DNA of 56,219 nt from Bacteriovoracaceae bacterium UBA4573 (GCA_002387735.1 DGKJ01000120.1:1-56219), one strand, 5' to 3'; counted from the stretch's first letter, positions 14,811 to 44,400 are shown. Program-made: numbers and translations. The notes: generated by a model from the sequence alone, not told the origin.

Positions 14811-15926
14811 ATGAATAAGGTTTTTTGGTGCACAAGTTGTCTTAATATGTCGACGAGACCGCGGATTACATTTGACGAAAAAGGCAGGTGTAATGCGTGT
14901 CAGTGGTCGGAAAAAAAGAAAAGCTTCGATTGGTCGATGAGACAAGCCACCTTAGAAAAGCTTTTGGACAAGTATCGAAGAGATGATGGAGAGTTCGATG
15001 TTTTGGTGCCTGTAAGTGGTGGCAAAGACGGTTCATATGTCGCTCACAATTTAAAGACAAAATATGGAATGAACCCGCTTGCTTTAACCATTACTCCCCC
15101 GCTCTCTCTAGAAGTCGGAGATCAAAATCTTAAAAACTTCATACAGTCCGGCTATAATCACATTCAAATTAACCTTCATCCAGAGGTCACTCGATTAATC
15201 AGCCGTCACGGTTTCATAGAGTTTGGTTTTCCGTATTATGGTTGGGCAATTGGAGTTCAATCTGCTCCTGTAATGTTTGCGCATAAAATAGGAATTGGTC
15301 TAATTTTTTACGGAGAAGATGGTGAAGTAGAGTACGGCGGATCCACTCAGACCGCAGAAACACCGACTTATGACGTTAGTTATATGAAGAAAGTCTACCT
15401 TGAGGGAGGCCACGAAAAGGTTCTGGAGCTACTACCTAAAAGTCTTCAGAATCAGTTAACTTTTTGGCATTTTCCAACAGACGAAGATTTGCGGAGAAAT
15501 GAAGTAAAAATTGCGCATTGGTCATATTTTGAAAACTGGGACCCTTATCGCAACTACCTTGTGGCGAAAGAGTTTTGTGGACTTAAGGAAAGTGAAATGA
15601 CCAACACTGGGACTTTTACGAACTTTTCCCAAACCGACCAGGCGTTGTACTCGCTACACGCTTACCTCATGTATTTAAAATTCGGCTTTGGTCGGGCTAC
15701 GCAAGATGCGGGCATCGAAATTCGTAGAGGCGCAATGCGTCGTGATCAAGGAGTAAACCTTGTTCGAATTTACGACAACGCATTTCCGGAAGAACATATT
15801 GATGCGTATCTCGATTATTATAAAATGAGCAGGGAGGAATTTGATAGCGTCTTAGATCGTTGGGCAAATAAAGAACTCTTCGAAAAAAAGAATGGGCGTT
15901 GGATGCCGAACTTTCGGATCAGCTAG
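14811..15926 (+). CDS. N-acetyl sugar amidotransferase (WbuX/WbpG/PseA family)
   Basis: N-terminal CxxC...CxxC (CTSC, CNAC), PP-loop SGGKDG, YGEDGE.EYGG, YLKFGFGRA..DA..EIR.G. Confidence 0.9.
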   Translation: MNKVFWCTSCLNMSTRPRITFDEKGRCNACQWSEKKKSFDWSMRQATLEKLLDKYRRDDGEFDVLVPVSGGKDGSYVAHNLKTKYGMNPLALTITPPLSLEVGDQNLKNFIQSGYNHIQINLHPEVTRLISRHGFIEFGFPYYGWAIGVQSAPVMFAHKIGIGLIFYGEDGEVEYGGSTQTAETPTYDVSYMKKVYLEGGHEKVLELLPKSLQNQLTFWHFPTDEDLRRNEVKIAHWSYFENWDPYRNYLVAKEFCGLKESEMTNTGTFTNFSQTDQALYSLHAYLMYLKFGFGRATQDAGIEIRRGAMRRDQGVNLVRIYDNAFPEEHIDAYLDYYKMSREEFDSVLDRWANKELFEKKNGRWMPNFRIS

Positions 15927-15930
15927 GAAT

Positions 15931-16539
15931 ATGATTCATATTTTGGACTATGGAATGGGAAATATCGCTTCGCTGAAAAACGCGTTGGAGTTTCTTGGAG
16001 CTGACGTTCGCATAACGTCCAAATGGACCGAGTTGAAAAAGAGTGAAAAACTTATAATTCCAGGCGTGGGTTCATTTACCACTGCAATGGACCGCCTCGG
16101 TCAGCTCGATCTAATCGGAGCGATTAAAGAACTACCCGAAAGAAAAGCCCCTGTTCTCGGTATTTGTCTTGGCATGCAAATTTTGGCTGATCGAGGATAT
16201 GAAGGCGGAAATACACCTGGTTTAGGATTGGTACCGGGGGAGGTCGTACCCTTCGTTCCCGAGAGTTCGGAATTAATTCCGAATGTGGGATTTAACGAAG
16301 TTGAAATACTGCCTACCGCTGGGGATTTATTTAAAGAAATAGCGAGCGGTTCCTATTTTTATTTCACGCATAGTTATTTTTTTCGCACTGATTCTCAAGG
16401 GTCTGTTACTGGTTTGGCTCAAAACGGGACCAAATTTACAGCGAGTGTCCAGTGTGAATATGCATTCGGCGTTCAGTTTCATCCAGAAATTAGTCAAAAA
16501 AAAGGTTTGCAGCTTCTCAGGAATTTTATTGAGCTATGA
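15931..16539 (+). CDS. HisH-like glutamine amidotransferase subunit (WbuY-like)
   Basis: ILDYGMGN..S, PGVGSF, GICLGMQ, YF.HSY, GVQFHPE; sits between the amidotransferase and HisF-like genes. Confidence 0.9.
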   Translation: MIHILDYGMGNIASLKNALEFLGADVRITSKWTELKKSEKLIIPGVGSFTTAMDRLGQLDLIGAIKELPERKAPVLGICLGMQILADRGYEGGNTPGLGLVPGEVVPFVPESSELIPNVGFNEVEILPTAGDLFKEIASGSYFYFTHSYFFRTDSQGSVTGLAQNGTKFTASVQCEYAFGVQFHPEISQKKGLQLLRNFIEL

Positions 16540-17318
16540 GAAAAAAAAGACTGATTTTCGCCTTACTACACCAGGACGGATATTTTGTTTTAAGTCGAAA
16601 CTTTCGACTGCAAAAGGTAGGCGACGTAAACTGGTTGATTGATAACTACAATCTGGCAGAGGTTGTGAAATCGATCGATGAATTAGCTATTATTTCGGTT
16701 TCGAGAAACAGAATTATTCACGAGACCTATTTGAGAGATTGCGAAATTATCAGCAAAGTTTGTTTTACTCCCAAAATTTTTGGGGGAGGTATCGCTTCTG
16801 TAGAAGATGCAAAAAGATTATTTGATTCAGGCGCGGACAAAATTATTGTGAACTCTTTGTGTTTTTCAAACTCGGCTTTGGTGTCAGATCTAGTGAGGCT
16901 TTTCGGAAGCCAGGCGGTTGTTGGTTGCTTAGACGTTTTAAAAGACAAAGTAAGCGGCGAATACAAGGTTTTTGTTAAGAATGGATCGGAAGTGTCAACA
17001 CTCAATCTGCGAGAATGCGTCGCTAAGCTGGATGAATTGGGAGTTGGAGAAATTATGATTCAGTCAATATCCCAGGACGGAACCGGCTTTGGGCTTGATT
17101 TGGCGGTGGTTGACGCTGTGGTTGCCGAAAAAAACACAGGCTCTCGACCTATCGTACTCGCCGGTGGAGCAGGGTATCACGCCCACTTAGCAGAAGCGCT
17201 AGCCCATCCAAATGTAAACGCAGTACTAACTGCAAATATCTTAAATTTTATTGGCGACTCACTATCTACAACTCGCAGGGACCTAATTGACTCCGGGATT
17301 GGCCTAGCCAAGTTCTGA
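16536..17318 (+). CDS. HisF-like TIM-barrel subunit (WbuZ/AglZ-like)
   Basis: SRNFRLQKVG, DEL, FGGGI.S.EDA..LF.SGADKI..NS, GEI..QSI.QDGTG.G.D; ATGA overlap with the HisH-like gene. Confidence 0.85.
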   Translation: MRKKRLIFALLHQDGYFVLSRNFRLQKVGDVNWLIDNYNLAEVVKSIDELAIISVSRNRIIHETYLRDCEIISKVCFTPKIFGGGIASVEDAKRLFDSGADKIIVNSLCFSNSALVSDLVRLFGSQAVVGCLDVLKDKVSGEYKVFVKNGSEVSTLNLRECVAKLDELGVGEIMIQSISQDGTGFGLDLAVVDAVVAEKNTGSRPIVLAGGAGYHAHLAEALAHPNVNAVLTANILNFIGDSLSTTRRDLIDSGIGLAKF

Positions 17319-17400: not shown

Positions 17401-18969
17401 ATGAATTCGATAGAGATGAAGCGAAGTGAATCCAACGTCATGATGCAGTCTAAAAAATTAGCTGACGATTTCGCTTTTAGAGCAGCTCGCTATAATAACC
17501 GGGCCTCCACATTATTTCCTTTTTCACTTAGAGAAGAGAACGACCTTCAAGTGTCTTTTTTTGATTACTGGAGATTGAAGAACCGTCTAAACGGCGTGAT
17601 GTTGAATCTCCGAATTTACGATAATCATGGACAATTGTTGAAGCGGCACACGAAGCGAGTAGATGCGCAGCATAACAATATATCTGTTCGATCGATACTT
17701 GGGGCAGAGAGAGCGGCATCTATCGATGGAATGGTCGAAGTGGAGTTTCTAAGTTTTGAAAATATGCTCTACCCATATCCGGCTGTAGTTGCATTCTATT
17801 TCGGAAAAGATGGTGGCCGAGGTACGGGATTTAGTGCGGTACATTCTGCGGGTCGAGTGCTTAACCCCAATGAGGCCTTCGTTAAACGCAAGTCGATCGG
17901 TACGAATTGGAGTTGCCGCTTCAATGATTCTAATCATCAGCCTTTTTTTCATTTGTACACTGGCCCCGGAGGGCTCGATGAGCCATTGACTACCGAAGTT
18001 AGTATTTGGTCTCCGAAGAACGAAAAACTTTTGGAAAAAAAGTATGTTACAAAAATACAGTATCCATTTTCGTCTCAGATTTGTTTTTTGGATGAAATCT
18101 TTGGAGCCGACCTCCATGGTGTTCCTGAAAATTCATATGCGAGAGTAAAGTTTTATTCTACAAACACCTACCCTCTTATGATCGTCGGAAACTATCGAAA
18201 GAGTGATGGACTTTATGAGGTTTCTCATTCGTTTGTTCAAAACGAAGTAGAAGATTATCTTGAATCCCCGCCAAACGAAGGTTCAGAGATCGTGCCAACA
18301 TTTATTTCACTTCTCCAGCCAGAAGAGTTGGAGTTAGAGTTAATGGTTTTTCCTACGGACATTGAACACTCCACTCAAGCTCGAATTCGTGCGATGTCAG
18401 AGTGGAATGGGGTCCTTAAAAGCACTAACGAAGAAATTAGAATTGAAAGTGGCGCCAACTCCGGTAAGGCGTTTGTTCGAAAGTTAGAACCAAACCAAAG
18501 GATGGTTCTAATCGAGGCGTTGTCAGGCCCGAAGATTCCTGCCCGAATCAATACCAGCTTTCGTTACCGAGTGCGTGGGTCTAAATCGGGTTATTCGACG
18601 GATATTGCAAGTGGAGCCAAGGCATGGATCTATCCATCGAAAACAAATTACTGGGGCCATGGAATTATTTCGGAAGATGTTGAAACGGTACTTCTTGTTA
18701 GAAACGCTTCTCATAATAAATCCATTTCGGCACCCGTCAAAGGCACTCTTAGAATAAGTATGGATAATTCCGAGAGTGGACCCATAGATGTGACGATAAA
18801 TGCAGAAAGTGGACAGGCATTATATCTTTCAAAGCTTTGGCCAGAGATGGCCAAAGATAGTAAATTAAGAACGCTTTCGTGGTGGTTCGTAGCAGAAAAA
18901 TCTTTTTTAGATATTTGTTGGGTTTCATTTTCAAAAGACGGAAGAATTGCTGGAGAGCACTCATTTTGA
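17401..18969 (+). CDS. Hypothetical protein, 522 aa, about four predicted beta-rich repeat domains; paralog of 26738-27631 and 27628-28500
   Basis: Long ORF inside an operon. Shares segments with the two minus-strand hypotheticals (see findings). No signal peptide or TM segment evident. Confidence 0.8.
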   Translation: MNSIEMKRSESNVMMQSKKLADDFAFRAARYNNRASTLFPFSLREENDLQVSFFDYWRLKNRLNGVMLNLRIYDNHGQLLKRHTKRVDAQHNNISVRSILGAERAASIDGMVEVEFLSFENMLYPYPAVVAFYFGKDGGRGTGFSAVHSAGRVLNPNEAFVKRKSIGTNWSCRFNDSNHQPFFHLYTGPGGLDEPLTTEVSIWSPKNEKLLEKKYVTKIQYPFSSQICFLDEIFGADLHGVPENSYARVKFYSTNTYPLMIVGNYRKSDGLYEVSHSFVQNEVEDYLESPPNEGSEIVPTFISLLQPEELELELMVFPTDIEHSTQARIRAMSEWNGVLKSTNEEIRIESGANSGKAFVRKLEPNQRMVLIEALSGPKIPARINTSFRYRVRGSKSGYSTDIASGAKAWIYPSKTNYWGHGIISEDVETVLLVRNASHNKSISAPVKGTLRISMDNSESGPIDVTINAESGQALYLSKLWPEMAKDSKLRTLSWWFVAEKSFLDICWVSFSKDGRIAGEHSF

Positions 18970-18987
18970 ATCGGGAGGAGTTTTCCG

Positions 18988-21144
18988 ATGAAGGATAAAC
19001 TTAAAGTATACTTGGGGGATTTAACTCATGACACAGTGGTTTTGGTGTCAGATACAATTCCTATCAATATTGGATTTGTAGCAACTTATTTAAAAAAGTC
19101 TCTTGGTGACGACGTAGAAATCACTTTGTTTAAATATCCAAATGAAATGGTTCAGGCATTGCGCGAAAATCCGGCCGACGTTGTAGCGCTCAGCAACTAT
19201 TCATGGAACAGTCATTTGTCTGAAAGGATGTCGGCTTTTGCGCACGAACAAAATCCGGCATCGATAACAGTTCAGGGCGGTACCAATCTCCCACACAGAT
19301 CAGAATTGCAAAAAGAGTTTCTTCTGACGAGGCCGGCCACCGATTTTTTTATAGAGCTGGAAGGAGAAGTAGCCCTTACCAATTTAGTAAGTAAGATCTT
19401 AGATTTTAGAAAAACCTTCGACGGAATGGGGAATAGGCTATTTCGTGATGCCCTCTTTTCAAAGGCGATTGATGGGTGCCTTTTTATACAACCCGAAACT
19501 CGCTCATCGGAGCAGCCCGTCTTTATAAAGGGTGAAAAACCAGCGCGACTTACCTGCCTTGATGAAATTCCATCCCCGTATTTAACAGGTATTTTAGATA
19601 AATTTTTCGATGGTAAACTGACGCCTTTCATTGAAACCAACCGAGGTTGTCCATTTACCTGTTCTTTTTGTCATACCGGTAGTTCCTATTTTAATAAAAT
19701 AAATCATTTTTCGGCAGAGCGAGTTCGCGAAGAACTCGCATACATTGCGCCGAGAGTGTCAAAGCTTGGAATCAGAAACTTACATGTTGCGGATACAAAT
19801 TTCGGAATGTACGCGAGAGATAAAGAAATTTGTGAAATGCTGCTTGAGTCGCAGAAACGTTATCTGTGGCCCACTCACATAATGGCGACAACAGGAAAAA
19901 ATAAAAAAGAACAGGTAATTGATATCACCCAAATGATGGGCACTTCTTTTTCTGTGAATATGTCAGTCCAGTCTATGGATGCCGAAGTTTTAAGAAACAT
20001 TAATCGTTCTAATATTAAATTAGAACACTATACCGAGATCACTCGCGTATTAAATGAACGCGGACGCGCGACCAAGGGCGAAGTGATTATTGGTTTGCCA
20101 GGGGAAAGTAAACAAACTTTCGTCGATGGACTGCGCAAAATTCTGGAAGCCGGTGTTAGCCAGGTTTCAATGTATTCTTTAATGCTTTTGCACGGGACCT
20201 CTTTTCAGGAACCCGAATACAGGGCGAAATACAAAATCGTTGGTAAATATCGAATTGTACCTTTGAATTTTGGAGAATACGCTGGAAAAAAGGTGTTTGA
20301 TACTGAGGAAGTCGGAGTTGAAACGCGTGATATGCCATTTGACGACTACCTTTGGATTCGTGGTTTGTGTCTACTCGTCGAAACGTTGCATAACAGCAGG
20401 CCTTATCATGAGTTTTTTAAGTACGCGGATTCGATAGGAATAAGTACTTTTGATTTCATATTGATGGTTTACAACCGTTTGGCTGAGGCACCACCAGCCA
20501 TAAAAGAGTTGATGAAGGAATTTATTGCCGAAACCCGAACTGAACTTTGGGATTCAGAAGAAGAACTGATTTCTTTTTACAGAAATGAAGCTAACTACCA
20601 AAAATTACTCGCAGGCGAATTAGGTGGGAATTTAATATTCAAGTATAAATCGTTAAGCTTGGTTAAGTGTAAAGGCGATTGGATAAAATTTCTTTCTAGT
20701 CTTTGTCTAGAATGGGGCCTTGCATCGGCACCGAATAAAGCAGTGGTAGATAAAGAAGTTGCTGCAATCTCGCAGTTTGTGGATAAACGACTTGATGGAC
20801 TTCTTCAGCCCGAAGCAAATACCTCAAATATTGAGATGGTGACCCATTATGATCTACTGGCCTGGAGAGCAAGCTCGGGCAAATCACTTTCTACTTTTTA
20901 TCGCGACGAGCCCTTTTCTTTCGAGTTTAAGTATTCGGAGGAACAGCTTGAGGCAAGAACAGATCAATTTAAAAGATATGGCACGTCAGTTAGTGCACTA
21001 AGTAAAATAGTTACTCGAGTAAGTAATGTGGAAAGTTTATTTAGAAAAGTTGCTTATGGTGCCGGTACAGATCTTTCTAAGCCAGATAGCACAGACTCAA
21101 AAATAGAGCAGGACTTATTTGTGCGATATTCAACTTCTGGGTAA
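18988..21144 (+). CDS. B12-binding-domain radical SAM protein (class B methylase-like), 718 aa
   Basis: N-terminal cobalamin-binding pattern (P..IGF.A.YL, DVVALSNYSWN, GG), ETNRGCPFTCSFC (CxxxCxxC), DTNFG, SVQS, IIGLPGES. Confidence 0.9.
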   Translation: MKDKLKVYLGDLTHDTVVLVSDTIPINIGFVATYLKKSLGDDVEITLFKYPNEMVQALRENPADVVALSNYSWNSHLSERMSAFAHEQNPASITVQGGTNLPHRSELQKEFLLTRPATDFFIELEGEVALTNLVSKILDFRKTFDGMGNRLFRDALFSKAIDGCLFIQPETRSSEQPVFIKGEKPARLTCLDEIPSPYLTGILDKFFDGKLTPFIETNRGCPFTCSFCHTGSSYFNKINHFSAERVREELAYIAPRVSKLGIRNLHVADTNFGMYARDKEICEMLLESQKRYLWPTHIMATTGKNKKEQVIDITQMMGTSFSVNMSVQSMDAEVLRNINRSNIKLEHYTEITRVLNERGRATKGEVIIGLPGESKQTFVDGLRKILEAGVSQVSMYSLMLLHGTSFQEPEYRAKYKIVGKYRIVPLNFGEYAGKKVFDTEEVGVETRDMPFDDYLWIRGLCLLVETLHNSRPYHEFFKYADSIGISTFDFILMVYNRLAEAPPAIKELMKEFIAETRTELWDSEEELISFYRNEANYQKLLAGELGGNLIFKYKSLSLVKCKGDWIKFLSSLCLEWGLASAPNKAVVDKEVAAISQFVDKRLDGLLQPEANTSNIEMVTHYDLLAWRASSGKSLSTFYRDEPFSFEFKYSEEQLEARTDQFKRYGTSVSALSKIVTRVSNVESLFRKVAYGAGTDLSKPDSTDSKIEQDLFVRYSTSG

Positions 21145-21162
21145 TTGATTGGTGTTCGTTTA

Positions 21163-22209
21163 ATGGACATGGAATTGCAGAGCGTTATGCGACGCAGGCT
21201 TCTGCTGGAAACTTTCCAGCGAGTCTCGTGGAAAAAAATTTTATTCAGGGGCCCAGTTTATCTTTTGTTTTTCCCTTACGCTTATTTTCTTTTGCAAAAT
21301 AATACGCTTCGAGTTTTTAAAAAAAAGAAACTTTCCATTCCATGTAGAGTTTGTGGGTCTTCTAACTCTACCCACGCTGGTTTTCGCAGAGCAGAGCCCC
21401 CTTATGCCTTCGACGAGCGAAAAGACAGTATAAACCTTTATGAAAAAAAAGGTTTTTTTGGCGACATTATTAGAAAATTTGAACCGTTTTTTCTAAAACT
21501 TGAGTGGAGGCGATGCAACGATTGCGGGAGCCTGTTCCAAAATTATCCACATACTGAGTCGAATCTTGATCGCTACTATTCGAGCTTAATTTCCGCAATG
21601 GAAATGACCGCATCGGCGCGCCGAATCAAAGAGTTGCCGGCAGTTTATTTTGTTGAACGTACGCAGCTGAAAAATGGCAAAGTGTTAGATGTGGGCGCCG
21701 CCTCGGGAGTGACATGCAATTATTTCAAAACTCATGGCCTAGAATCTTGGGGAATTGAGCCTTCACATGAAAGAGTGGCAGCATCTCGGGAACTCTTCGG
21801 TTTGGGTGATCGAATGGTTCAGGGTGTTTATAATCGGACGTCTTTTGCCCCTAGTTCTTTTGACGGTATAGTCACACATCACGTTATCGAACATGTGTTA
21901 AAGCCTTCCGAATTTATTGATGCGCTTGCGCTTCATTTAAAAAAAGGCGGATGGCTATTGCTTCAGTGCCCCTCTCTTGATTGCAATGTTTCAGCGACTC
22001 ATGGAATGCACATTGCAGCGTTTACGCTCGATGTAATGCAAAAATTAATTGAAAAAAAAGGTTTTAGGGTGGTCGAGTCATTTGTTGTACCTAAAAAGGT
22101 TTCTGAAATTCCAGAATCCTGGCGTATTAGTAATTCCCCGGAATTAAGCGAATACACTCGTTTTGGATCAATGTTGGGCGGTATGAGCATTCTCGCGCGA
22201 AAGGTGTGA
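21163..22209 (+). CDS. Class I SAM-dependent methyltransferase with N-terminal zinc ribbon
   Basis: CRVC...CNDC, VLDVGAASG, GIEPS, FDGIVTHHVIEHV..P, LKKGG; hydrophobic N-terminal stretch. ATG 21163 preferred over TTG 21145. Confidence 0.85.
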   Translation: MDMELQSVMRRRLLLETFQRVSWKKILFRGPVYLLFFPYAYFLLQNNTLRVFKKKKLSIPCRVCGSSNSTHAGFRRAEPPYAFDERKDSINLYEKKGFFGDIIRKFEPFFLKLEWRRCNDCGSLFQNYPHTESNLDRYYSSLISAMEMTASARRIKELPAVYFVERTQLKNGKVLDVGAASGVTCNYFKTHGLESWGIEPSHERVAASRELFGLGDRMVQGVYNRTSFAPSSFDGIVTHHVIEHVLKPSEFIDALALHLKKGGWLLLQCPSLDCNVSATHGMHIAAFTLDVMQKLIEKKGFRVVESFVVPKKVSEIPESWRISNSPELSEYTRFGSMLGGMSILARKV

Positions 22210-22212
22210 AAC

Positions 22213-23109
22213 ATGTTAGAGAATAAGTTTCCCGGTAAGGACCTCACGGAAGAAGATTTAAAATCAAAAGTTCCTCTTTGTGCAAAAAAATCCAGGGACC
22301 ATAGAACCATCGTGAAAGCGGCTGGTGTAGAATTCGGTGGAAAGCTAATTCCGATTTTCGCCGGGCCTAATGCTGTCGAGAATGAAAGCATGATTATGCG
22401 AACAGCAGAAGCAGTAAAAATGGCTGGTGCGCATTTCTTGAGGGCGGGCGCCTTTAAACCTTTGAGTTTTCCCTATCGAAGTGAAAAATATTTCGAACTG
22501 CGCGAAGAGGGGTTGAAACTTTTACTTAAGGCGAAGGCAGCTTTTCAAATTCCGATTATCACAGAAATTATGCACGAAACAAAGGTGGATATAGTGGCTG
22601 AAGTTGCCGATATTCTTCAGGTTGGTGCACGAAACATGCAAAACTACCCACTGCTCGAAGCAGTAGCCAGGACCTCAAAACCGATTATGCTTAAGAGACA
22701 CTACGGTGCTTCGCTTCGCGATTGGTTGGGAGCTGCCGAGTATATATTGCATGCGGGTAATCCGAATGTAATTTTATGTGAACGTGGGGTAGTGGTTCCT
22801 CACACACATCGCGCGACTTCGAGATTTCTTTTAGACCTTCAGGTTATACCGGCAGCGCAGGAGGTAACCCACCTCCCAGTAGTGACAGACCCTTCACACG
22901 CTACGTTTTGGAAGCCATGGGTTAAGCCAATGGCATTGTCGTCTATTGCAGCAGGCGCAGATGGCGTAATGATAGAAGTTCACCCGGATCCAGAAAATGC
23001 AGCAGTAGACCCATTACAGCCGATAGATTTTAGGGACTTCAAAGGTCTTATGAAGGACATGGAGCGCGTAGCTAACGCAATTGATCGAACGGTCGGTGTG
23101 TCTGCGTGA
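22213..23109 (+). CDS. Class I-beta DAH7P/KDO8P synthase family protein with altered active site
   Basis: AGP.AVE, RAGAFKP, ITE, DILQVGARNMQNYPLL, P.MLKR, ILCERG, DPSH, GVMIEVHPDP. Cys->Asn (codon 53) and KPR->KPL (codon 84) relative to DAH7P synthases. Confidence 0.88.
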   Translation: MLENKFPGKDLTEEDLKSKVPLCAKKSRDHRTIVKAAGVEFGGKLIPIFAGPNAVENESMIMRTAEAVKMAGAHFLRAGAFKPLSFPYRSEKYFELREEGLKLLLKAKAAFQIPIITEIMHETKVDIVAEVADILQVGARNMQNYPLLEAVARTSKPIMLKRHYGASLRDWLGAAEYILHAGNPNVILCERGVVVPHTHRATSRFLLDLQVIPAAQEVTHLPVVTDPSHATFWKPWVKPMALSSIAAGADGVMIEVHPDPENAAVDPLQPIDFRDFKGLMKDMERVANAIDRTVGVSA

Positions 23110-24470
23110 ATAAAAAGCTAGTTTCGATAATTGTGCGTACGAAGAACGAGGAGCGCTGGATTTCTGCAGCCTTGCAAGCAGTGTTTTCTCAGACTTATCC
23201 GAATTTTGAAGTAATCCTAGTAGACAATTTAAGTAATGATCGAACGCTAGAGAAAGCTAAAAAATTCGATGTTAGGGTCGTTTCCATAGAAGATTTTCTG
23301 CCGGGTAAAGCAATTAATCTCGGAATACGACAGTCAAAAGGTGAGTATGTGGTGTGCTTGTCGGGTCATTGTATTCCAGTTGACGATAAGTGGCTTGAAA
23401 CTCTAGTAAACACTCTAGAAGAGGATGCGAATTTTGCGGGCGTTTATGGGCGTCAACAACCGCTATCCTATAGTTCAGACCTTGATAAAAGAGATTTGAT
23501 AATTACGTTTGGACTGGACCGTCGAATTCAACATAAAGATCCTTTCTTTCACAATGCCAACAGCATTCTTCGAAGAAGCATTTGGGACCAAATTCCATTT
23601 GATGAGGCGGCTACGAACATCGAAGATCGAATATGGGCAAGCGCTGTTTTGAAAAAGGGTCTTAAAATTGTTTATGACCCGGATGCGAGTGTTTACCACT
23701 ATCATGGAATCCATCACGGTAGAGATCTGGGACGAGCAAAAAAAATCGTCAAAATACTCGAGACCTTGGAGTCTAAGACGCTTCGAAACCCAGGTAAGTC
23801 CGAAGTAAGAAAAGTCGCAGCGGTGATTCCTGTGCGGGGTTCAGATCTTGAGGTTTTTGCAGGACGCCCGTTGCTCGAATATTCAATCAGAAGCTCATGT
23901 GCGAGCAAACTCGTTGATCAAACGGTGGTAGTGTCGGAAGACGCGAAAGCTCTCGAATTGGCACGTCAGCTTGGTGCGGATATATGTTTAGAACGACCGG
24001 CGGAACTTTCATTTGACTACAGGGATATAACGGACACGTTGGTATTTGCAGATGCGGCTTTAGCAGCGAAGGGCCTCGCGCCAGACGTGGTCGTCTATCT
24101 TTCGGTGAATAGCCCGTTTAGAAGAAAACAGCTGATAGACTCAATGCTTCAAAAAATGTTTGAAAATAATTACGACAGCATCCATGCAGCATTTCCAGAG
24201 AATCGAACATGCTGGATCGAACAAAATGGGGAACTCGTGCTCGTTGGCGAGGAGTTTGTTCCAGCAAAGTACAGGGACCCTCTTTATATCAGCCTTTCAG
24301 GGCTTGCCACATGCGTTCACTCAGATGTTCTAAGAAGTGGGACAAGACTGGGTAAAAATGTTGGGCTTTTTCAAGTTGATGACTCGATTTCGCTAATGGA
24401 TATAAAAAAAATACCAAACAAAGAAATTGCGGGAAATTTAATGAGCGCCTGGGACAAGGAGTTCGGCTAG
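23106..24470 (+). CDS. Fusion: N-terminal GT2 (rhamnosyltransferase-like) plus C-terminal degenerate acylneuraminate cytidylyltransferase-like domain
   Basis: SIIVRTKNE, VDNLS.D.T, GKAINLG, GRQ.P, EDRIWA, VYHYHG; then IPVRG..FAGRPLLEYSI, VVVSED, RPAELSFD. GTGA overlap with the upstream synthase. Confidence 0.85.
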   Translation: MNKKLVSIIVRTKNEERWISAALQAVFSQTYPNFEVILVDNLSNDRTLEKAKKFDVRVVSIEDFLPGKAINLGIRQSKGEYVVCLSGHCIPVDDKWLETLVNTLEEDANFAGVYGRQQPLSYSSDLDKRDLIITFGLDRRIQHKDPFFHNANSILRRSIWDQIPFDEAATNIEDRIWASAVLKKGLKIVYDPDASVYHYHGIHHGRDLGRAKKIVKILETLESKTLRNPGKSEVRKVAAVIPVRGSDLEVFAGRPLLEYSIRSSCASKLVDQTVVVSEDAKALELARQLGADICLERPAELSFDYRDITDTLVFADAALAAKGLAPDVVVYLSVNSPFRRKQLIDSMLQKMFENNYDSIHAAFPENRTCWIEQNGELVLVGEEFVPAKYRDPLYISLSGLATCVHSDVLRSGTRLGKNVGLFQVDDSISLMDIKKIPNKEIAGNLMSAWDKEFG

Positions 24471-24478
24471 TGCCAAAT

Positions 24479-25435
24479 TCAAACGGCGGAAATCCATGTT
24501 TTCGTAGAAGACGCCACTTCGCACGCCTCTATGGCCGCTAAAGTCTGCATGGCTTCGTTTAGAGTGCAACAAATAGAAGTCTCGCCCGCTAACAAATGCT
24601 TGTGCATAAGAGAGTATGTAAAGTCCGAATTGACGCCGTGTTTCTCGATAATTTGTTCGTCTTGAGTAAATCTTTGTATTTCCAGTTGGCCAGTAATTAG
24701 GTCCGCAATCCACGTTCCCTTGTTTGAGTTTACGATCATGAATCTTTTAGCGGAACGATTGAGATAATTCATATGAACCACGACATTTGAGCACCGTTTG
24801 GTTTTTAGGAGGATGGAATACGCGTCGTCGCTATCGATCGTTACGTCGCTAATTTTACCTCCGAGTGCTGTTAAATTTGTCCATTCTCCAAAAATCCACT
24901 GGATATAATCAATCTCGTGACTCAGATCCCGGAGTACGCCGCCACCCAATTTTTTTTTTGCCGAATATGAATCTGTACCATTCGCTCTTTTGGGTCGCCA
25001 CGATGGAAGGTACTGCCCGACATAAACATTTACCGTAACAATAGTGTCATTGCCTAAAAGCTCTTTGAGTCGTTGGAGGACTGGAAGAAATCGTAAATTG
25101 TATCCAACACCACATAGCGAAAACGGGCTACTTATGGGGGCCTCTGGGCGTTTGTCGAAAACTGGCTTTTCGATCAGAAGGGCACCGGTGTAACCAACCG
25201 CTACGAGATTTCGATACGCATCGAAGTGGTCAGATGTATTGTTTGCGATGACTACATAATCAAAATGATCCCGACTAAATGCCTGCACTATAGAGTCATA
25301 GGTGCGGAATTTTCCCGCATCCTGTTTGGTTACGAGCGAAACAGATTTACAATGAGACTCTAGAATTCGAGCGTGTCGACTTCCGATCGAGCCGTAACCT
25401 ATTACCAAGGCGTTACGAGAGTTTGTGGGCTGCAT
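24479..25435 (-). CDS. Gfo/Idh/MocA family oxidoreductase (PtmF/ElaA-like)
   Basis: VIGYGSIGSRH, IANNTSDH, LIEKP, VGYNLRF, GQYLPSWRP, GGGVLRDLSHEIDY. Confidence 0.88.
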   Translation of the reverse strand: MQPTNSRNALVIGYGSIGSRHARILESHCKSVSLVTKQDAGKFRTYDSIVQAFSRDHFDYVVIANNTSDHFDAYRNLVAVGYTGALLIEKPVFDKRPEAPISSPFSLCGVGYNLRFLPVLQRLKELLGNDTIVTVNVYVGQYLPSWRPKRANGTDSYSAKKKLGGGVLRDLSHEIDYIQWIFGEWTNLTALGGKISDVTIDSDDAYSILLKTKRCSNVVVHMNYLNRSAKRFMIVNSNKGTWIADLITGQLEIQRFTQDEQIIEKHGVNSDFTYSLMHKHLLAGETSICCTLNEAMQTLAAIEACEVASSTKTWISAV

Positions 25436-25556
25436 GCGGACAGTCTATTGATTGCCAGTTTCGATTTCAATGGTCATATCCGAAATCCGAAGATTAACAT
25501 GAGTGCGAATTAGATAATTTATATTGGAACGAGAATGAGCTAAAGATGAGGCCATA

Positions 25557-26741
25557 GTGTCGAAAGAACAAATCATTCAATCAATAATTGACGGTATCAA
25601 AGAAGTTCTGCCAGGTTCAGGCAGTCCGAACGCGTCCTTCGAACTTCATGAGCCACGTTTTACCGGCAATGAGTTGAACTACTTGAAGCAATGCGTCGAG
25701 ACGGGTTGGGTATCTTCCCTCGGTGAATTTGTAACGAAGTTTGAAAAAGACTTGTCGAATTTTACAGGCGCTTCCCACGCGATTGCAACGTCCAATGGAA
25801 CTGCTGCACTACACACTTGTCTAATGCTCGTGGATGTAAAGCCGGGAGATGAAGTGTTGGTTCCAGCGCTTACCTTTGTAGCTACTGGAAATGTGGTAGC
25901 TTATTGTGCCGCTACACCAAACTTTTATGACTCTGAGCCCCACACCCTTGGAGTGAACGTTCAAAAATTGCGCGAGTACCTCGCCAGTAACTGTCGGGTA
26001 GTGGGTAGCGATTGTGTAAATAAGGCTACGGGCCGAAGAATTAGAGCCTTAATCGCAATGCATACATTTGGGCACCCGTGCGATTTGGCTCCACTCAAAG
26101 ATTTGTGCTTAGATTTTAAAATTCGACTTATCGAAGACGCCGCGGAATCGCTCGGATCATACTACAAAGGTGTACACACTGGCTTATTTGGTGAAGTGGC
26201 CGCTTTGAGCTTTAATGGCAATAAAATTGTAACTACTGGCGGAGGCGGCGCAATTCTCACGTCGGATCCCGAAATTGCTAGACGGGCCCGGCATCTTACT
26301 ACAACCGCCAAGGTGTCCCATCAGTGGGGCTTTTTTCATGATCAAGTGGGTTATAACTATCGCATGCCCAATATCAACGCAGCACTCGGCTGCGCTCAGA
26401 TGGAATCAATCGGGCAATTAATTGAAAATAAAAGACGCCTTGCCGCGCGTTACCAGAACGTATTTAATAACATTCCCGGTGTTCGGATTTTTAAAGAGGC
26501 GAACTACGCTCGTAGCAACTACTGGCTTAACGTGTTACTTTTGGAAAAAGCCGATGTAGGGGCTCGAGATCGGGTACTGGCCGCAGCGAACGCTGTTGGA
26601 ATTAAAGCCAGACCGGCCTGGACACTCCTTTACAAGTTACCGATGTTTCAGACCTGTCCACGCACCGACATGGCTGGATCGGAATTAATTGAAAATAGCC
26701 TTATCAATCTTCCCAGTAGTCCACACCTAGGAAAACATTAA
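25557..26741 (+). CDS. legC: PLP-dependent sugar aminotransferase, LegC-type
   Basis: LHEPRF.GNE..Y...C..TGWVSS.G, NGTAALH, PALTFVAT, IEDAAESLGS, SFNGNKIVTTGGGG, HDQVGYNYRMPNINAALG. Confidence 0.88.
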   Translation: MSKEQIIQSIIDGIKEVLPGSGSPNASFELHEPRFTGNELNYLKQCVETGWVSSLGEFVTKFEKDLSNFTGASHAIATSNGTAALHTCLMLVDVKPGDEVLVPALTFVATGNVVAYCAATPNFYDSEPHTLGVNVQKLREYLASNCRVVGSDCVNKATGRRIRALIAMHTFGHPCDLAPLKDLCLDFKIRLIEDAAESLGSYYKGVHTGLFGEVAALSFNGNKIVTTGGGGAILTSDPEIARRARHLTTTAKVSHQWGFFHDQVGYNYRMPNINAALGCAQMESIGQLIENKRRLAARYQNVFNNIPGVRIFKEANYARSNYWLNVLLLEKADVGARDRVLAAANAVGIKARPAWTLLYKLPMFQTCPRTDMAGSELIENSLINLPSSPHLGKH

Positions 26742-27631
26742 CAGTGCATTAAAGTAATAGCACCGTTTGAAAAGTGCATTAAAAGCATTACACGCGTCCA
26801 TTGGGTCGGAAGGCCGTGTAGATCGAACGAGCCGTTGGGACCCAATGCGGCTAACTGGGATTCTGAAGCCACATATCTAAAAACACCTCTCGGAGCTACT
26901 TCAGATGTGTGAGTGAATAATTCTTGGCCCGATTGATTTCTCAGGCGCAGACTAATTGCCTGCGACGAAGCACAGCGGTTTGTCGTAATTATTTCAACTC
27001 TTTGGCACCCAAGGTTTGAGCCAAATGGAATTTCGGGAAACCAAGAATAATTGCCCTTTTTTCCATAGAAAAGGTCGTACTTATCCGAGACTCCTTTTTG
27101 AAAAACCGCGTAGCGATCAATCCCGTGCACGAAAGCAGCAAAAGATTTTCCTTTGGTGAAACAATAATAACTACGATCAGCAAAATAAGCGTGTCCCTTG
27201 GTACATTCGGGCAAATCTAAAACCGCCTTAGGTACTGAAATGTGCCAAAGCAATGTTCCAACAGAAGAAGGAGATGAAAAAATGCTCTTTTCAGTGGCCA
27301 CAGAAATCTGCTTTGTTTCAAGGACACCCAATTCAAACTCCCTTTTTCCTATTTCTACGCCGTTACTATCAAACCACCATAGATTGACTTTAGTTCGGGT
27401 GTCGAGGTGCGGATAGTAAACTGAGTGGTGGTTGTAGATATAAAAAGTAGTATCAATCTCTCCGTCCGAGATCCATGGGTAGAGATCGTTGATTGCCCCA
27501 TATTTTCTCAGGCTAGGATTTTTTTCTTTTAGACTATGCGGAAGTCTATTCCTTATATGATTTTTGGCCCTTCGCAGGTGATGTAGTAGGGACTTTTTTA
27601 AGGATTCGTTTTGAGATGAGGTATTATTCAT
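26738..27631 (-). CDS. Hypothetical protein, 297 aa, two predicted beta-rich repeat domains
   Basis: Clean ORF with ATGA coupling to the upstream paralog; segments similar to the 522-aa protein. Confidence 0.8.
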   Translation of the reverse strand: MNNTSSQNESLKKSLLHHLRRAKNHIRNRLPHSLKEKNPSLRKYGAINDLYPWISDGEIDTTFYIYNHHSVYYPHLDTRTKVNLWWFDSNGVEIGKREFELGVLETKQISVATEKSIFSSPSSVGTLLWHISVPKAVLDLPECTKGHAYFADRSYYCFTKGKSFAAFVHGIDRYAVFQKGVSDKYDLFYGKKGNYSWFPEIPFGSNLGCQRVEIITTNRCASSQAISLRLRNQSGQELFTHTSEVAPRGVFRYVASESQLAALGPNGSFDLHGLPTQWTRVMLLMHFSNGAITLMHC

Positions 27632-28500
27632 TGCGTTAACCGGTTTTCTTTGTGAGATAGAAAATGATTTATCGCCCGCTCGCGAATTTCGTAAAAGTAT
27701 TTATTAGGCATTTGCAAATAAGCCTGTGGCGGGTGTGTGTGTTCGATCGAGACCCCTCCTCGCCTATTATTTACGTTTAAAAATAATGGGATTAGGATTC
27801 CCTCGTTCGAATAGCCAACCAAAGTAAATTGGCTCGGAGTTTCGCTGACTGAAGCGCTCGGAACAAGTTCTGAAAGCTTTAGTGCACACCCAGTAAAGCC
27901 GGGCACAGTTTTTCGGAGGCTTGAAACTTTTTTTCCATTAGCGTGGTGAAGGTCCACTGTGCAGGTAATCGGGTGAGAGGTCTCAGAATTTGTAGTGAAG
28001 TTTAAAAGAAGGAGATATGTTTCGATTTCCGTACTGAGCAAAACCTGACTGCTATGTACGATAAAATTAGCTCTTTTAGTGGCATTAAATGTGTAGGGTG
28101 CCTCGTAGACCACGCTACCAAAGGCTTTAAATCGATCGCGGTATTGCACTATCGACCGGAACATCAAAAACATTTCATGGTTAATATTGGTTAGGTCCAT
28201 TTCTGGAACTCTGTGTACTACGACAAGGTATGGCGACTTGAAGCCATATTTTTCAGTAAGTGAAGATACAGGAAAAAACTCTCTAGTATTGGGCGCCAAC
28301 TTGCCAACTTGGTACCTATCAACAAAATTTCCGGAAGGGTCGTAAACCGAAAACCAAACCTGGTGCGACTGCATAGAGTTCGAAATTCCCTTTGGGTTGA
28401 AAGAGCTCAAACCAACATATGCTTCTAAATCCAGGTCCGGAAAAACCATCATTGGCGTATATATCAATCGAAATGGATCTGCTTTCATGAGGGTGAACAT
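27628..28500 (-). CDS. Hypothetical protein, ~290 aa, two predicted beta-rich repeat domains
   Basis: Clean ORF (ATG 28500, or TTG 28506). The C-terminal half aligns by eye with the last domain of the 522-aa protein. Confidence 0.8.
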   Translation of the reverse strand: MFTLMKADPFRLIYTPMMVFPDLDLEAYVGLSSFNPKGISNSMQSHQVWFSVYDPSGNFVDRYQVGKLAPNTREFFPVSSLTEKYGFKSPYLVVVHRVPEMDLTNINHEMFLMFRSIVQYRDRFKAFGSVVYEAPYTFNATKRANFIVHSSQVLLSTEIETYLLLLNFTTNSETSHPITCTVDLHHANGKKVSSLRKTVPGFTGCALKLSELVPSASVSETPSQFTLVGYSNEGILIPLFLNVNNRRGGVSIEHTHPPQAYLQMPNKYFYEIRERAINHFLSHKENRLTQ

Positions 28501-28596
28501 ACTCAAGTATTCGCCAGTTTAACAAGAAAATTGCAGCCTATTTTTAAGGCGGGAATAGGCCGATTTTTGTTCAAAAGACAGTGGCCAGTAAGATGT

Positions 28597-29562
28597 TCAA
28601 TTGTCCACAAGACTGGTCCGAAGTCGACGAATATATCCATTTATTTCGAGCTCTTTAAATTTGAATATCTCGTCCTCAATGTGGCATTGCCAACCCGGTA
28701 GGTCTCGCCTCAATTTCCGGTTCGAAAGAGCCATGTTCGAGGACCTTTTGGCCTTTAACTTCAGACTCTCAACCTTAGTGGGAATAATGAGCGAGTAATC
28801 AAAATCAAATGCCGCGCATATTTGCTGGGCAAACTCGTACTTGGATATCGAGCGATCACTCGCAACATGGTAAGTTCCACGAAGTCCGTGTTCGATCATT
28901 TCGTGTAATGTGGAAGATAGCGTATTGGTTAGGATGGGCGTGAACCAAACATCTTCTACTGCTGGAACAGTCTTGCCGTCGCGCAGCAGAAAATATATCC
29001 ACTCTGCGAGGCTACTCTTGATTTGGTAGTTCCAGCCAAAAAAGTTAGTACGAATAATTAGGTGATTCGAGCATTTCTTTCGAATGATGTCTTCGGCGAG
29101 TAATTTTGTTTCGGCATAATAATTAAGAGGTGTAACTGCCGATTCTTCGTCATGAAGAACGTTTTTCTCAGAAAAAAATGCGTCAGTTGACAAATGCACA
29201 AACAAACTTCGGTTGGCGCCACAATACTCAGAGAGTGAATCCGGAACCGAAACATTCAATTGATAGGCAAGTTCGCGATTGGTTTCGCATTCGTCCACGT
29301 TTACAGCAGCAGCAGTGTGAATTATGACTTCCGGGCGGACTCGTTCAAGAAGTTCAAAGAGTGCGGCTTTCTCTCGCAGGTCAAGCATATAGTTGGTTGT
29401 TCCTGATAACGAAATTGGATGGGTAAGATAGGTGCCGACAAGTCCGTACCGATCTCGAAGTTCCATGAGTAGGGTGGCTCCGAGTAGGCCGCTAGAACCT
29501 GTAATTAGGACTACCTTCTTAGACAGCTTTGGCGATTGGTCGCTAGGTTTTGAGTGTGTCAC
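28597..29562 (-). CDS. RmlD-like extended SDR (NDP-4-keto-6-deoxyhexose reductase)
   Basis: ITGSSGLLG, IIHTAA.VNVD.CE, HLSTD, YYAETK (YxxxK), IIRTN, FTPI, GTYH. Confidence 0.88.
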   Translation of the reverse strand: MTHSKPSDQSPKLSKKVVLITGSSGLLGATLLMELRDRYGLVGTYLTHPISLSGTTNYMLDLREKAALFELLERVRPEVIIHTAAAVNVDECETNRELAYQLNVSVPDSLSEYCGANRSLFVHLSTDAFFSEKNVLHDEESAVTPLNYYAETKLLAEDIIRKKCSNHLIIRTNFFGWNYQIKSSLAEWIYFLLRDGKTVPAVEDVWFTPILTNTLSSTLHEMIEHGLRGTYHVASDRSISKYEFAQQICAAFDFDYSLIIPTKVESLKLKAKRSSNMALSNRKLRRDLPGWQCHIEDEIFKFKELEINGYIRRLRTSLVDN

Positions 29563-36844: not shown

Positions 36845-38425
36845 CTAGATTATAAATTCTTTTAAAGAGGCAGGTTCATTTACCCCAAAAAATTGTTCTG
36901 AAAAAGCACGCGCTCGAAATCTTTGAGCATTTAATTGTTCGAGCGGAAGATTTTTAATCTCTTCTAAAATGGGAACTATGGAGCGACTTTTATCGTAGAT
37001 CCATCTAAGGTCGGTGAGTCGATATAAAGGATCAAAGCAGATGTCATTCTCGCGCGAAACGTATATTACGGGTAAACCAATAGCGATCGCTTCGATTGCA
37101 GATGCACTAGCCGAATAAATTGCGATATCGGCTCTTTCTAGGTCTTCTCGTAGGCTTTTGCATTCCGAGAGTGCGATATTTTTTGGTAATGCCTTGGTTG
37201 TTACATTTAGATGGCTAATAATGGCGGACCATTTGTGCGCGGGATGCTTTCGAACTATGACTTTCCAGTCGTTGTTGTTTTCTAAATTGGCGATAATGTT
37301 TTTGGCAAAATCGGAAGTTTCAATCAAGTCGAGCAAAATCAGGATTGTGTTTTTAATGGTCTCATTTTTCGATTCAGTTTTGTAACTGCTACTTTGTCGA
37401 AGCGCGAATCCGACGGAAAGTTTCAAGCGGTGTTCCTGGCTAAATTCTCGAATAACACGGACAGCTTCTTGTCCAGCCGTGACTACGCGGTCCGGAATTG
37501 GAGCGTATAGCGATTCATCTGTTCCTAAAAAAAGGTTCATCGAACCTGGCGATACAATCGTATGCTGGTACCCAATGATCTGAGTTTTTGGACTGAATGT
37601 TCGTAGCGCTAAAACACACATTCGTTCCCATGGATTATTTTCCCAAGTGTAAACAAAGTGTGAAAGTTTTAGAGTTTTACTTATATTCTTGATCGCATAA
37701 TAGTGGCAAAGGGAGTGAATAGAGGTAGAACTTAAGAGGTCGAAAAAATATTGATATCTAAAAACGGACGTGACGTCTTTCTCGGCGAAGCGTATAGGAC
37801 CTTTTGGTGATGTAAATAGTCCCAAAATTATTCGGCCCCAAACACGAATAAGGTCGTAGGGTTCGAGAAAAAAATGTAGCGGTAAAATCCGATCTGAAGC
37901 ACGACAATGTGCGAGGGCTTTATTAAAATCGCAAAGAGGGTCGACTATCGTTAGAACTTTATGATTACCTGGGGGATTTGAAGCAAGTTCAGCCAAATTT
38001 CCAAAGTAAGGATCTTTGGAGTCACCAGAATCTTTAGGGTTTTGCAGAAGAAAACTTTTGATCAGATAAAAGGGAGTCTCGCGATCAGAACACAGACTCT
38101 GAAAGAGTTCAGCCAAGGCTCGTCGCGAAATAAAAGCATTTTTAGCAATTCTAAGGCTGACTCGTATAGAATGGCTCACAGCTTTTGAAAAAATTTGCAG
38201 TTTGGTTAAAAATGCAAGTTCTGCCGGATTTGAATCGTGCCAGATCGAGTAGCAGTGTTTTACGGAGAGGGAGGATGTTTTATTTTTTGAAGGTATCCAG
38301 GTAGCCCACCACGCGAGCGAGCAATTCAAGCTATTAAGTCTAGCAATTAGACTGCAATATTCTTGTACAAAAGTCCCGTTGGTATGGTCCGAATCGCTCT
38401 TCAACGTGGATTTCGATGGTTCCAC
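36845..38425 (-). CDS. Uncharacterised surface-carbohydrate protein with GT-B-like C-terminus
   Basis: WENNPWE, IIGYQH, VRKHP, and ADIAIYSAS.SAIEAIAIGLPVI typical of GT-B C-terminal lobes. GTG 38425 preferred (track start 38452). Confidence 0.6.
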   Translation of the reverse strand: MEPSKSTLKSDSDHTNGTFVQEYCSLIARLNSLNCSLAWWATWIPSKNKTSSLSVKHCYSIWHDSNPAELAFLTKLQIFSKAVSHSIRVSLRIAKNAFISRRALAELFQSLCSDRETPFYLIKSFLLQNPKDSGDSKDPYFGNLAELASNPPGNHKVLTIVDPLCDFNKALAHCRASDRILPLHFFLEPYDLIRVWGRIILGLFTSPKGPIRFAEKDVTSVFRYQYFFDLLSSTSIHSLCHYYAIKNISKTLKLSHFVYTWENNPWERMCVLALRTFSPKTQIIGYQHTIVSPGSMNLFLGTDESLYAPIPDRVVTAGQEAVRVIREFSQEHRLKLSVGFALRQSSSYKTESKNETIKNTILILLDLIETSDFAKNIIANLENNNDWKVIVRKHPAHKWSAIISHLNVTTKALPKNIALSECKSLREDLERADIAIYSASASAIEAIAIGLPVIYVSRENDICFDPLYRLTDLRWIYDKSRSIVPILEEIKNLPLEQLNAQRFRARAFSEQFFGVNEPASLKEFII

Positions 38426-39111
38426 TCGGTCAGCACCTTTTCCGCAAGCCAAAAGTCAAATTCATCGTGGATATCTATCGTAGTTCTAAAATCCTCTGTA
38501 GGAATAATTTCCACTACGCTCCCCAATCGTTTGCCTTCTCGAACAAGCCAAGCACGTGTAGCTGAAGCAACGCCTTGGTCCTCGCGGTAGGTAACTTTAT
38601 CTCCTCGTTCTTGTCGTGAGCTATAAACCGCTTCTGTAAGACGAACGTATCCCTCATTGGTTTTTTTCCAAAAGTGTTTGTGAGTTTTGTACCCTGAAAA
38701 GGCTGTGTGAACGGCAGGATTCTTTTTTAAATGATTCACGCATGCCGCAATCATTTCGGGGGTTCGAAATACATCAGTGGGTTGAAGGTAAACTACGATA
38801 TCGAATTTGGCTCCGATCATGTCTTCATAGGTTGTTAACGCGTGCGTGATAACAGGGTCTGGGGTAGCCGAATCAGTCGCGAGTTCTGGAGGTCGTCGAA
38901 AAGGTACTACCGCGCCCGCCTTCATGGATATTTCAGCAATTTCATCATCGTCTGTGGTTACAAGCACTTCGTCGCATACGCCAGATTCCTTAGCGTGATC
39001 AATGCTATGCACAATGAGTGGTTTTCCAGCTAATTTCCTGACATTTTTTCGCGGCAGTCCCTTAGAGCCACCGCGAGCCAGGATTATGGCGATTGTTTTT
39101 AAGTTATCCAT
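38401..39111 (-). CDS. Second acylneuraminate/ulosonate cytidylyltransferase
   Basis: ILARGGSKGLPRKN, VTTDDDEI, RPPELATD, LQPT..FR, DI....DF..AE. Confidence 0.9.
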   Translation of the reverse strand: MDNLKTIAIILARGGSKGLPRKNVRKLAGKPLIVHSIDHAKESGVCDEVLVTTDDDEIAEISMKAGAVVPFRRPPELATDSATPDPVITHALTTYEDMIGAKFDIVVYLQPTDVFRTPEMIAACVNHLKKNPAVHTAFSGYKTHKHFWKKTNEGYVRLTEAVYSSRQERGDKVTYREDQGVASATRAWLVREGKRLGSVVEIIPTEDFRTTIDIHDEFDFWLAEKVLTEWNHRNPR

Positions 39112-44387: not shown

Positions 44388-44400
44388 AATCAAACAGCTC

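Follow-up and report, generated by a model that had tools for sequence, protein, structure and literature searches.

The 56,219-nucleotide stretch of DNA analysed here, referred to as the window, comes from Bacteriovoracaceae bacterium UBA4573 (GCA_002387735.1, DGKJ01000120.1:1-56219) and is one whole contig of a 2.8 Mb genome that is 94% complete. It carries three genes, P0001, P0002 and P0003, whose products are built from one repeated beta-rich domain. P0001 strings four of these domains into a single chain, while P0003 and P0002 form a coupled pair of two-domain genes on the opposite strand. Each of the three families has one copy in the source genome. Reading of the open reading frames (ORFs) placed all three at the coordinates and on the strands given by an earlier note made from the sequence alone. 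Sizes are in amino acids (aa).

17401..18969, + strand: P0001, an ORF of 522 aa with four domains.
26738..27631, − strand: P0002, an ORF of 297 aa with two domains, the downstream gene of the pair.
27628..28506, − strand: P0003, an ORF of 292 aa from TTG with two predicted domains and a C-terminal tail, the upstream gene of the pair.
27628..27631, − strand: the stop of P0003 and the start of P0002 overlap in ATGA, sequence CAATGAATAAT read directly, giving translational coupling.

The true start of P0003 is probably Met7 at 28488, giving a protein of 286 aa, because both the family alignment and a 286-aa database entry (P0022) place the start there. Signal peptides had been reported as absent, and the N-termini, judged by eye only, agree. 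P0002 opens with a basic amphipathic helix (residues 4-29); in P0001 a shorter, conserved helix occupies this position.

The description of these proteins as unannotated holds for the curated libraries. Pfam and NCBIfam scans of all three returned noise only, as did a Pfam scan of the complete P0002 family (27 members), and profile searches of the PDB sequences with the three family alignments gave no match. None of them matches a characterised family in these resources, and a literature search turned up no publication about the cassette. For P0001 there are 18 homologues (30-40% identity) and for P0003 there are 28; every database homologue of these two is labelled 'hypothetical protein' and lacks a Pfam domain. 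P0002 appeared to be an orphan in a word-index search, which found no homologue; exhaustive phmmer found 44 cluster representatives, and synteny adds an independent P0002 homologue downstream of a P0003 homologue (E 3e-35). The family alignments comprise 18 sequences for P0001, 27 for P0002 (the A3, or P0002-type, family) and 29 for P0003 (the A2, or P0003-type, family).

The three proteins are distant, ancient paralogues of one repeated domain. BLASTP detects this in one pair, the last domain of P0001 against the C-terminal half of P0003, at a marginal E of 0.01, and is non-significant for the other two pairs. Profile comparison by hhalign is far more revealing. The N-terminal half of P0001 aligns with the whole P0002 family over 214 columns with both domains collinear (E 1.4e-6, probability 90%), and the first domains of the two proteins, whose match the earlier note had seen by eye and BLASTP missed, align on their own at E 8e-6. 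The last domain of P0001 matches P0002 domain 1 over 99 columns (E 1.8e-5 to 3.6e-6), with GEHG of the one aligned to FVHG of the other. P0003 domain 2 matches P0002 domain 1 over 67 columns (E 5e-5). The resemblance between the last domain of P0001 and the C-terminal half of P0003, also noticed by eye, is borne out by 67 columns between the C-terminal half or last domain of P0001 and P0003 (domain 2) at E 1.3e-3 to 3e-4. P0002 is itself an internal duplication, its domain 1 matching its domain 2 over 113 columns (E 3.3e-6).

These profile matches are significant and stand well above their controls, which were 25 block-shuffles and reversed profiles. Real scores of 50.5, 46.6, 34.8 and 40.7 compare with block-shuffle maxima of 28.9, 21.8, 27.3 and 23.2, and reversed profiles score about 14. 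Self-comparison of the P0001 family for an internal repeat yields an E of 0.21 only, and the repeat in P0001 is visible only because the P0002 family serves as a hub. The A2 hidden Markov model also cross-matches members of the P0001 family.

The strength of the link differs among the domains. By sequence profiles, five of the eight are judged securely linked. P0001 domain 2 is marginal alone (E 3.7e-3), though it lies within the 214-column collinear match to P0002, and P0003 domain 1 has a marginal match only, to P0002 domain 1 (E 1.3e-3). P0001 domain 3 has no significant hhalign match to any other domain and is collinear with P0003 domain 1 only in a weak BLASTP alignment; it appears linked by predicted structure and collinearity only. 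Taken as a whole, P0001 is strongly supported as a P0002-like N-terminal half fused to a P0003-like C-terminal half.

The structural models present the same picture. AlphaFold2 models cover P0001 and P0002, six domains in all, and the two domains of P0003 are predicted from sequence only. The P0001 model has a predicted local distance difference test score (pLDDT) of 84.3 and a predicted template modelling score (pTM) of 0.88, and is all-beta with four 8-strand sandwiches; that of P0002 (pLDDT 93.0, pTM 0.86) is all-beta with two. DSSP assigns exactly eight strands to each of the six modelled domains, which are about 120 aa long, so that the repeated beta-rich domain proposed in the earlier note, put there at ~125 aa and here at ~120-125 aa, stands on both hhalign and the models. 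The high pTM of the 522-aa model argues that the four domains pack as a compact body and not as beads on a string. The domains and their signature residues are as follows, strands being denoted by E and their residue range.

17488..17880, + strand: P0001 domain 1, residues ~30-160, E34-43 to E144-148, ending S-A-V-H148-S-A-G-R; H148 codon 17842-17844.
17881..18270, + strand: P0001 domain 2, residues ~161-290, E163-169 to E271-276, N169-W170 on strand 1, ending V-S-H276-S-F; H276 codon 18226-18228.
18286..18630, + strand: P0001 domain 3, residues ~296-410, E300-305 to E400-405, ending S-T-D-I-A-S-G, without a terminal His.
18631..18966, + strand: P0001 domain 4, residues ~411-522, W418 on strand 1, T429 and N435 on strand 2, C-terminal G-E-H520-S-F; H520 codon 18958-18960.
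27125-27127 and 26744-26746, − strand: codons of P0002 H169 and H296; N67 and N218 end strand 2 of the P0002 domains.
27739-27741, − strand: codon of P0003 H256, in E-H-T-H-P-P-Q.

A Foldseek comparison of both models with the PDB returned, among the 50 best matches of each, only generic non-catalytic tandem immunoglobulin (Ig)-like/macroglobulin arrays and no enzyme fold. These E-set arrays, matched at E 1e-5 to 1e-3, include the macroglobulin (MG) domains of complement C3/C5, the Ig-like domains of PrgB, the accessory domains of glycoside hydrolase family 2 (GH2) and the C-terminal barrels of transglutaminase 2. They share tandem beta-sandwiches with P0001 and P0002, and the TM-scores of 0.1-0.18, with a root-mean-square deviation above 16 Å, imply that only the generic domain class is common to them. 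Unlike P0001 and P0002, the matched arrays are extracellular or accessory parts of enzymes, and they have no conserved motif in common with the two proteins. Cupredoxin/multicopper-oxidase, PHM/DBH, superoxide reductase, arrestin and lytic polysaccharide monooxygenase-like folds were considered and dropped, none appearing in the Foldseek lists.

One signature of the repeat is a His at the end of the domain. The earlier note counted six of eight domains ending in this way; the count is exact, and each His is invariant in its family alignment: H148, H276 and H520 of P0001 in 18 sequences, H169 and H296 of P0002 in 27, and H256 of P0003 in 29. The five cases that fall within the models place it as the last residue of the last strand. 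P0001 domain 3 and P0003 domain 1 lack it. Divergent members keep the domain-end His in contexts such as NAVHA, ANHSY, GEHGF, LEHSQPP and VEHSLPP, and lose the second His of the H-T-H in P0003 (LEHSQPP, VEHSLPP) and the Cys of the M-H-C at the end of P0002 (C-termini LHS, FHG, LHA). A second signature lies on strand 2, which is closed by an Asn, invariant at N67 and N218 and at least 90% conserved at N435, with a conserved Asp/Glu-Thr at positions N-7 and N-6. Many polar residues (His, Arg, Asn and Asp) are invariant across all four domains, and strong invariance of polar positions in strands and loops extends to Arg153 and Arg280.

Fused and split architectures run in parallel. Pair loci were gathered by a genome scan with the A2 family and come from metagenome-assembled genomes of Dehalococcoidia (Chloroflexota), Nitrospirota, Omnitrophota and others. 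Wherever downstream DNA exists, an A3 gene directly follows the A2 gene, adjacent or overlapping: in seven independent loci, in the window and in the divergent pair of L101 (L numbers denote metagenomic loci). This conserved order, together with the models and the ATGA overlap, upholds the earlier contrast between one four-domain gene and a coupled 2+2 pair. The working unit is thus strongly supported as four domains, delivered either as one chain (P0001) or as a predicted P0003-P0002 heterodimer. The window is the only locus with both forms.

The combination of eight strands and these signatures recalls the ASRAH superfamily, whose members include ASRT, the sensory rhodopsin transducer of Anabaena (PDB 2II7), and Thermotoga TM1070 (PDB 1NC7) (De Souza, Iyer and Aravind 2009, PMC2739507). 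An ASRAH domain is an eight-stranded sandwich in which strand 1 bears a conserved Trp and strand 2 is closed by a near-invariant Asn; within either half of four strands, strand 2 belongs to one sheet and strands 1, 3 and 4 to the other (PMC2739507). Strand 2 lines the ligand cleft, and binding of small molecules or sugars has been predicted, not demonstrated (PMC2739507). The superfamily occurs as homotetramers, dyads and tetrads, cytoplasmic or secreted, and is represented in Pfam by PF07100 and, for actinobacterial dyads, by PF18986 (DUF5719) (PMC2739507). No later work on ASRAH domains in the present context was found in the literature.

There are several likenesses. All six modelled domains of P0001 and P0002 have eight strands in about 120 aa, ASRAH domains being about 115-125 aa long. 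A Trp is present in four domains (W53 in P0002 domain 1, W170 in P0001 domain 2, W418 in P0001 domain 4 and a consensus Trp in P0002 domain 2), and an Asn lies exactly at the end of strand 2 (N67, N218, N435). P0001 has four domains in one chain, and P0002 and P0003 have two each and are always co-encoded, in keeping with tetrad and dyad forms. Cytoplasmic ASRAH members, too, are encoded in sugar-metabolism operons. A direct test used an ASRT alignment of eight PF07100 sequences (two PDB entries, one genome and five plasmid records). Against it, a merged profile of the five secure domains scored 25.2 (E 3.8e-4, 60 columns), a value reached by none of 60 block-shuffles (maximum 19.8) and well above the reversed profile (10.7). 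Three domain profiles align to ASRT in one common strand register, in which N218 meets the signature Asn of ASRT.

There are also differences. P0001 domain 1 has Phe39 in place of the strand-1 Trp, and the P0003 domains have no clear Trp. In six of the eight domains an additional, invariant His terminates the last strand. The architecture is a four-domain cytoplasmic chain, or a 2+2 pair from two different families, and the context is one of nonulosonic-acid loci with radical S-adenosylmethionine (radical SAM) and methyltransferase genes. The three families are probably a very divergent ASRAH (ASRT/TM1070) branch, a membership that is suggestive and not proven. The earlier note had spoken of a new family. 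This stands insofar as curated resources do not describe it; 'new' is probably too strong, because the domains share with ASRAH the strand number, in part the Trp and Asn signatures, and the habit of forming dyads and tetrads, a link that a weak profile match in a consistent register supports.

ASRT orthologues themselves were seen in one of 201 genomes of the window's phylum. On Sinorhizobium megaplasmids they are frequent, and some Klebsiella plasmids carry one too (L094-L099); the ASRT gene of Deinococcus deserti abuts a D-arabinono-1,4-lactone oxidase gene.

Nonulosonic acids of the legionaminic and pseudaminic families decorate flagella, capsules and lipopolysaccharides. In the window, a large surface-sugar locus spans 13.6-49 kb and encodes NeuB, two CMP-ulosonate synthetases, DegT, and PseB-, PtmE- and GFO/MocA-type proteins, along with a PseA/HisH/HisF-like acetamidino trio, a B12-radical SAM protein, methyltransferases and a fused ATP-binding cassette (ABC) exporter. 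The features nearest the three genes are as follows.

14811..17318, + strand: trio of PseA-like amidotransferase, HisH-like and HisF-like genes (acetamidino-group formation), directly upstream of P0001; Pfam matches for the HisH- and HisF-like proteins.
18988..22209, + strand: B12-binding radical SAM protein (718 aa) and Zn-ribbon class I methyltransferase (354 aa), directly downstream of P0001; Pfam matches.
28597..29562, − strand: RmlD-type reductase, upstream of the P0003-P0002 pair on the same strand; Pfam RmlD_sub_bind E 1e-48.
28536-28560: between the RmlD-type gene and the P0003 start, a palindromic hairpin (10-bp stem) with a T-rich tract after it.

The hairpin suggests that the P0003-P0002 pair may be transcribed separately or attenuated. 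Farther along the locus, a 535-aa protein at 36845-38452 (− strand) has no Pfam domain and is a candidate ulosonic-acid transferase. Its remote-homology group (clusters c32, c51 and c58) shows weak Glyphos_transf and glycosyltransferase family 4 (GT4) matches and recurs in P0001-family and pair loci.

The setting in sugar-tailoring loci, inferred in the earlier note, is supported by the wider distribution. For the P0001 family, 77 metagenomic loci were collected, and the 38 of at least 12 kb were used for gene counts. NeuB and GFO/MocA genes occur in 22 each, a NeuC-type epimerase in 21, the PseA/HisH/HisF trio in 20-21, PtmE in 19 and a CMP-transferase in 16. The four-domain family sits within legionaminic-acid-type operons. 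A homologous B12-radical SAM gene is the immediate neighbour of the P0001-family gene in 10 of the collected loci, window included; other immediate neighbours are a sulfotransferase, a glycosyltransferase of family 2 (GT2), a polysialyltransferase-like protein, an unknown 393-aa protein and a short-chain dehydrogenase/reductase (SDR).

Pair loci have a related context. Of the six loci with upstream DNA, five have a radical SAM/SPASM gene immediately upstream of the pair, and at least five loci encode a class I or FkbM methyltransferase close downstream. Fused ABC exporters are nearby in 10 of the 38 long P0001-family loci, in four of seven pair loci and in L101, and a GT-B-like unknown family recurs in P0001-family and pair loci alike. 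The distribution of both families is sparse and patchy: they were found in two and three of the 201 phylum genomes, and among those genomes neither occurs in the window's own family or order.

Several layouts of the P0001-family loci recur. In the marine loci L048, L060 and L079, the order is NeuC, c33, c30, carbamoyltransferase, B12-radical SAM, P0001-family gene and the unknown 393-aa protein; the window has homologues of c33 and c30 at 45554-47136, beside a second NeuC-type gene (44365-45579). In L020, L023, L043 and L076, also marine, a 104-aa winged-helix (MarR-like) regulator and a CDP-alcohol phosphatidyltransferase precede the P0001-family gene, and SDR, ATP-grasp and legionaminic-acid genes follow it. 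At ~10001-11480 of L076 the P0001-family gene is in two adjacent ORFs, one of 170 aa, probably through a frameshift or assembly error. The P0001-family gene of L006, L061, L064, L070, L082 and L083 ends a short operon, after a weakly matching alpha-2,8-polysialyltransferase-like gene, which hints at a link to a transfer or polymerisation step. L003 was considered as a second instance of the P0001-radical SAM-methyltransferase order and rejected: the 711-aa neighbour, a membrane protein bearing a spermidine-synthase-like domain, is unrelated, and the methyltransferase match is not significant.

The reading we favour, holding it at about even confidence, is that of a non-catalytic four-domain ligand-binding unit of divergent ASRAH type, serving a metabolite of the ulosonic-acid type. 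Its pockets, which may be formed by the strand-2 Asp/Glu-Thr...Asn, the invariant terminal His and conserved Arg residues, would bind an intermediate of that type, either as such or nucleotide-activated. Through protein-protein contact the unit could then present this ligand to adjacent tailoring enzymes, or regulate them. Candidate partners are the radical SAM enzyme and methyltransferase, or a sulfotransferase, carbamoyltransferase or transferase.

A number of observations weigh against this reading. Some concern the kinship with ASRAH: hhalign probability against ASRT is only 27-36% (E 3.8e-4 to 7e-4), PF07100 and PF18986 match no member by hmmscan, and 1NC7 and 2II7 are absent from both lists of the 50 best Foldseek matches, where multi-domain queries favour multi-domain targets. 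The ASRT ligand residues His and Cys are not kept, S-H-E-s-h-C being replaced by Asp/Glu-Thr, and P0002 domain 1 has a 7-9-residue insertion with a short helix after the Asn, where the ASRAH turn is tight and gap-free. Other observations concern the role. The many invariant His, Arg, Asn and Asp residues would also suit a site for catalysis or metal binding. Genes next to the four-domain family differ from locus to locus, which implies no single partner enzyme. Finally, a distant pair in L102 (5024-6671, 275 + 275 aa, overlapping; G023:C4), the most distant pair subfamily, lies in a non-glycan neighbourhood adjoining phosphoenolpyruvate carboxykinase, adenosine deaminase and a transglutaminase-like gene, so that the module is not restricted to sugar-tailoring loci.

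Other explanations are less probable. The one that fares best, though unlikely, is a His-dependent enzyme or metalloenzyme in which His together with Arg, Asn and Asp would form one or more catalytic or metal sites at domain interfaces for epimerisation, dehydration or oxidation of an ulosonic acid. Six invariant His at equivalent positions, the E-H-T-H-P-P-Q of the close P0003 subfamily and the M-H-C end of the close P0002 subfamily, invariant polar residues spread over all four domains and a place mid-operon among biosynthetic enzymes are what such an enzyme would lead one to expect. Its motifs, however, thin out in divergent members, which keep neither the latter His of H-T-H nor the Cys of M-H-C, and one His per domain makes a poor metal site unless the domains converge; moreover, two of the eight domains have none. 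RmlC/FdtA-type cupin epimerases and isomerases are small beta-rich proteins of double-stranded beta-helix (jelly-roll) fold, with a catalytic His/Tyr or a metal site, that are encoded in sugar-tailoring loci, and neither a cupin or jelly-roll enzyme among the Foldseek matches nor a Pfam cupin match was found. The epimerase or oxidase suggested in the earlier note gains no support from fold searches, which return non-catalytic Ig-like arrays and no enzyme in either list; it keeps a small probability because of the invariant His, Arg and Asn.

Somewhat less probable again is a generic Ig-like scaffold or adaptor with no small-molecule pocket, which would organise glycan assembly or export around the ABC exporter and transferases, its His residues being structural. 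The Foldseek matches, all of them non-catalytic tandem Ig-like/macroglobulin arrays, the recurrence of fused ABC exporters and GT-B-like unknowns near both P0001-family and pair loci, and the basic amphipathic N-terminal helix of P0002 are compatible with such a role. Yet a pure scaffold would seldom show such strong invariance of polar residues (strand-2 Thr/Asn, Arg153, Arg280 and His), none of the neighbours is present throughout, and one pair lies outside any glycan locus.

We consider similarly improbable the proposal that the four-domain unit, as one chain or as the P0003-P0002 heterodimer, is a hitherto unrecognised, obligatory subunit of radical SAM systems that modify sugars, holding and delivering their substrate, or is itself catalytic. 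A composite His/Arg site at a domain interface, possibly metal-binding, would in that case deliver an ulosonic acid or nucleotide sugar to the radical SAM enzyme and methyltransferase, and the unit would be the carbohydrate counterpart of the peptide-recognition elements of radical SAM enzymes for ribosomally synthesised and post-translationally modified peptides (RiPPs).

Last, convergence or chance among three unrelated beta-sandwich proteins sharing one locus, to which the two non-significant BLASTP pairs and the lack of a sequence match for P0001 domain 3 might point, is essentially excluded, largely by the collinear 214-column profile match and its shuffle controls, and also by the same eight-strand count in every modelled domain, the invariant His and Asn at equivalent positions and the parallel fused and split architectures.

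To our knowledge, many steps in the tailoring of nonulosonic acids have no assigned protein. The present analysis defines three linked unannotated families that recur in such loci across many uncultured phyla, and describes them as one four-domain module, fused or split, with residues to probe in the six His, the strand-2 Thr/Asn, Arg153 and Arg280. If the ASRAH link of the favoured ligand-binding reading is true, these proteins would be the first members of a poorly understood superfamily to be tied to a defined pathway, and the fused and split forms would offer a natural pair for studying domain assembly. Should the unit prove to partner the radical SAM enzymes that modify sugars, it would represent a new kind of accessory subunit.

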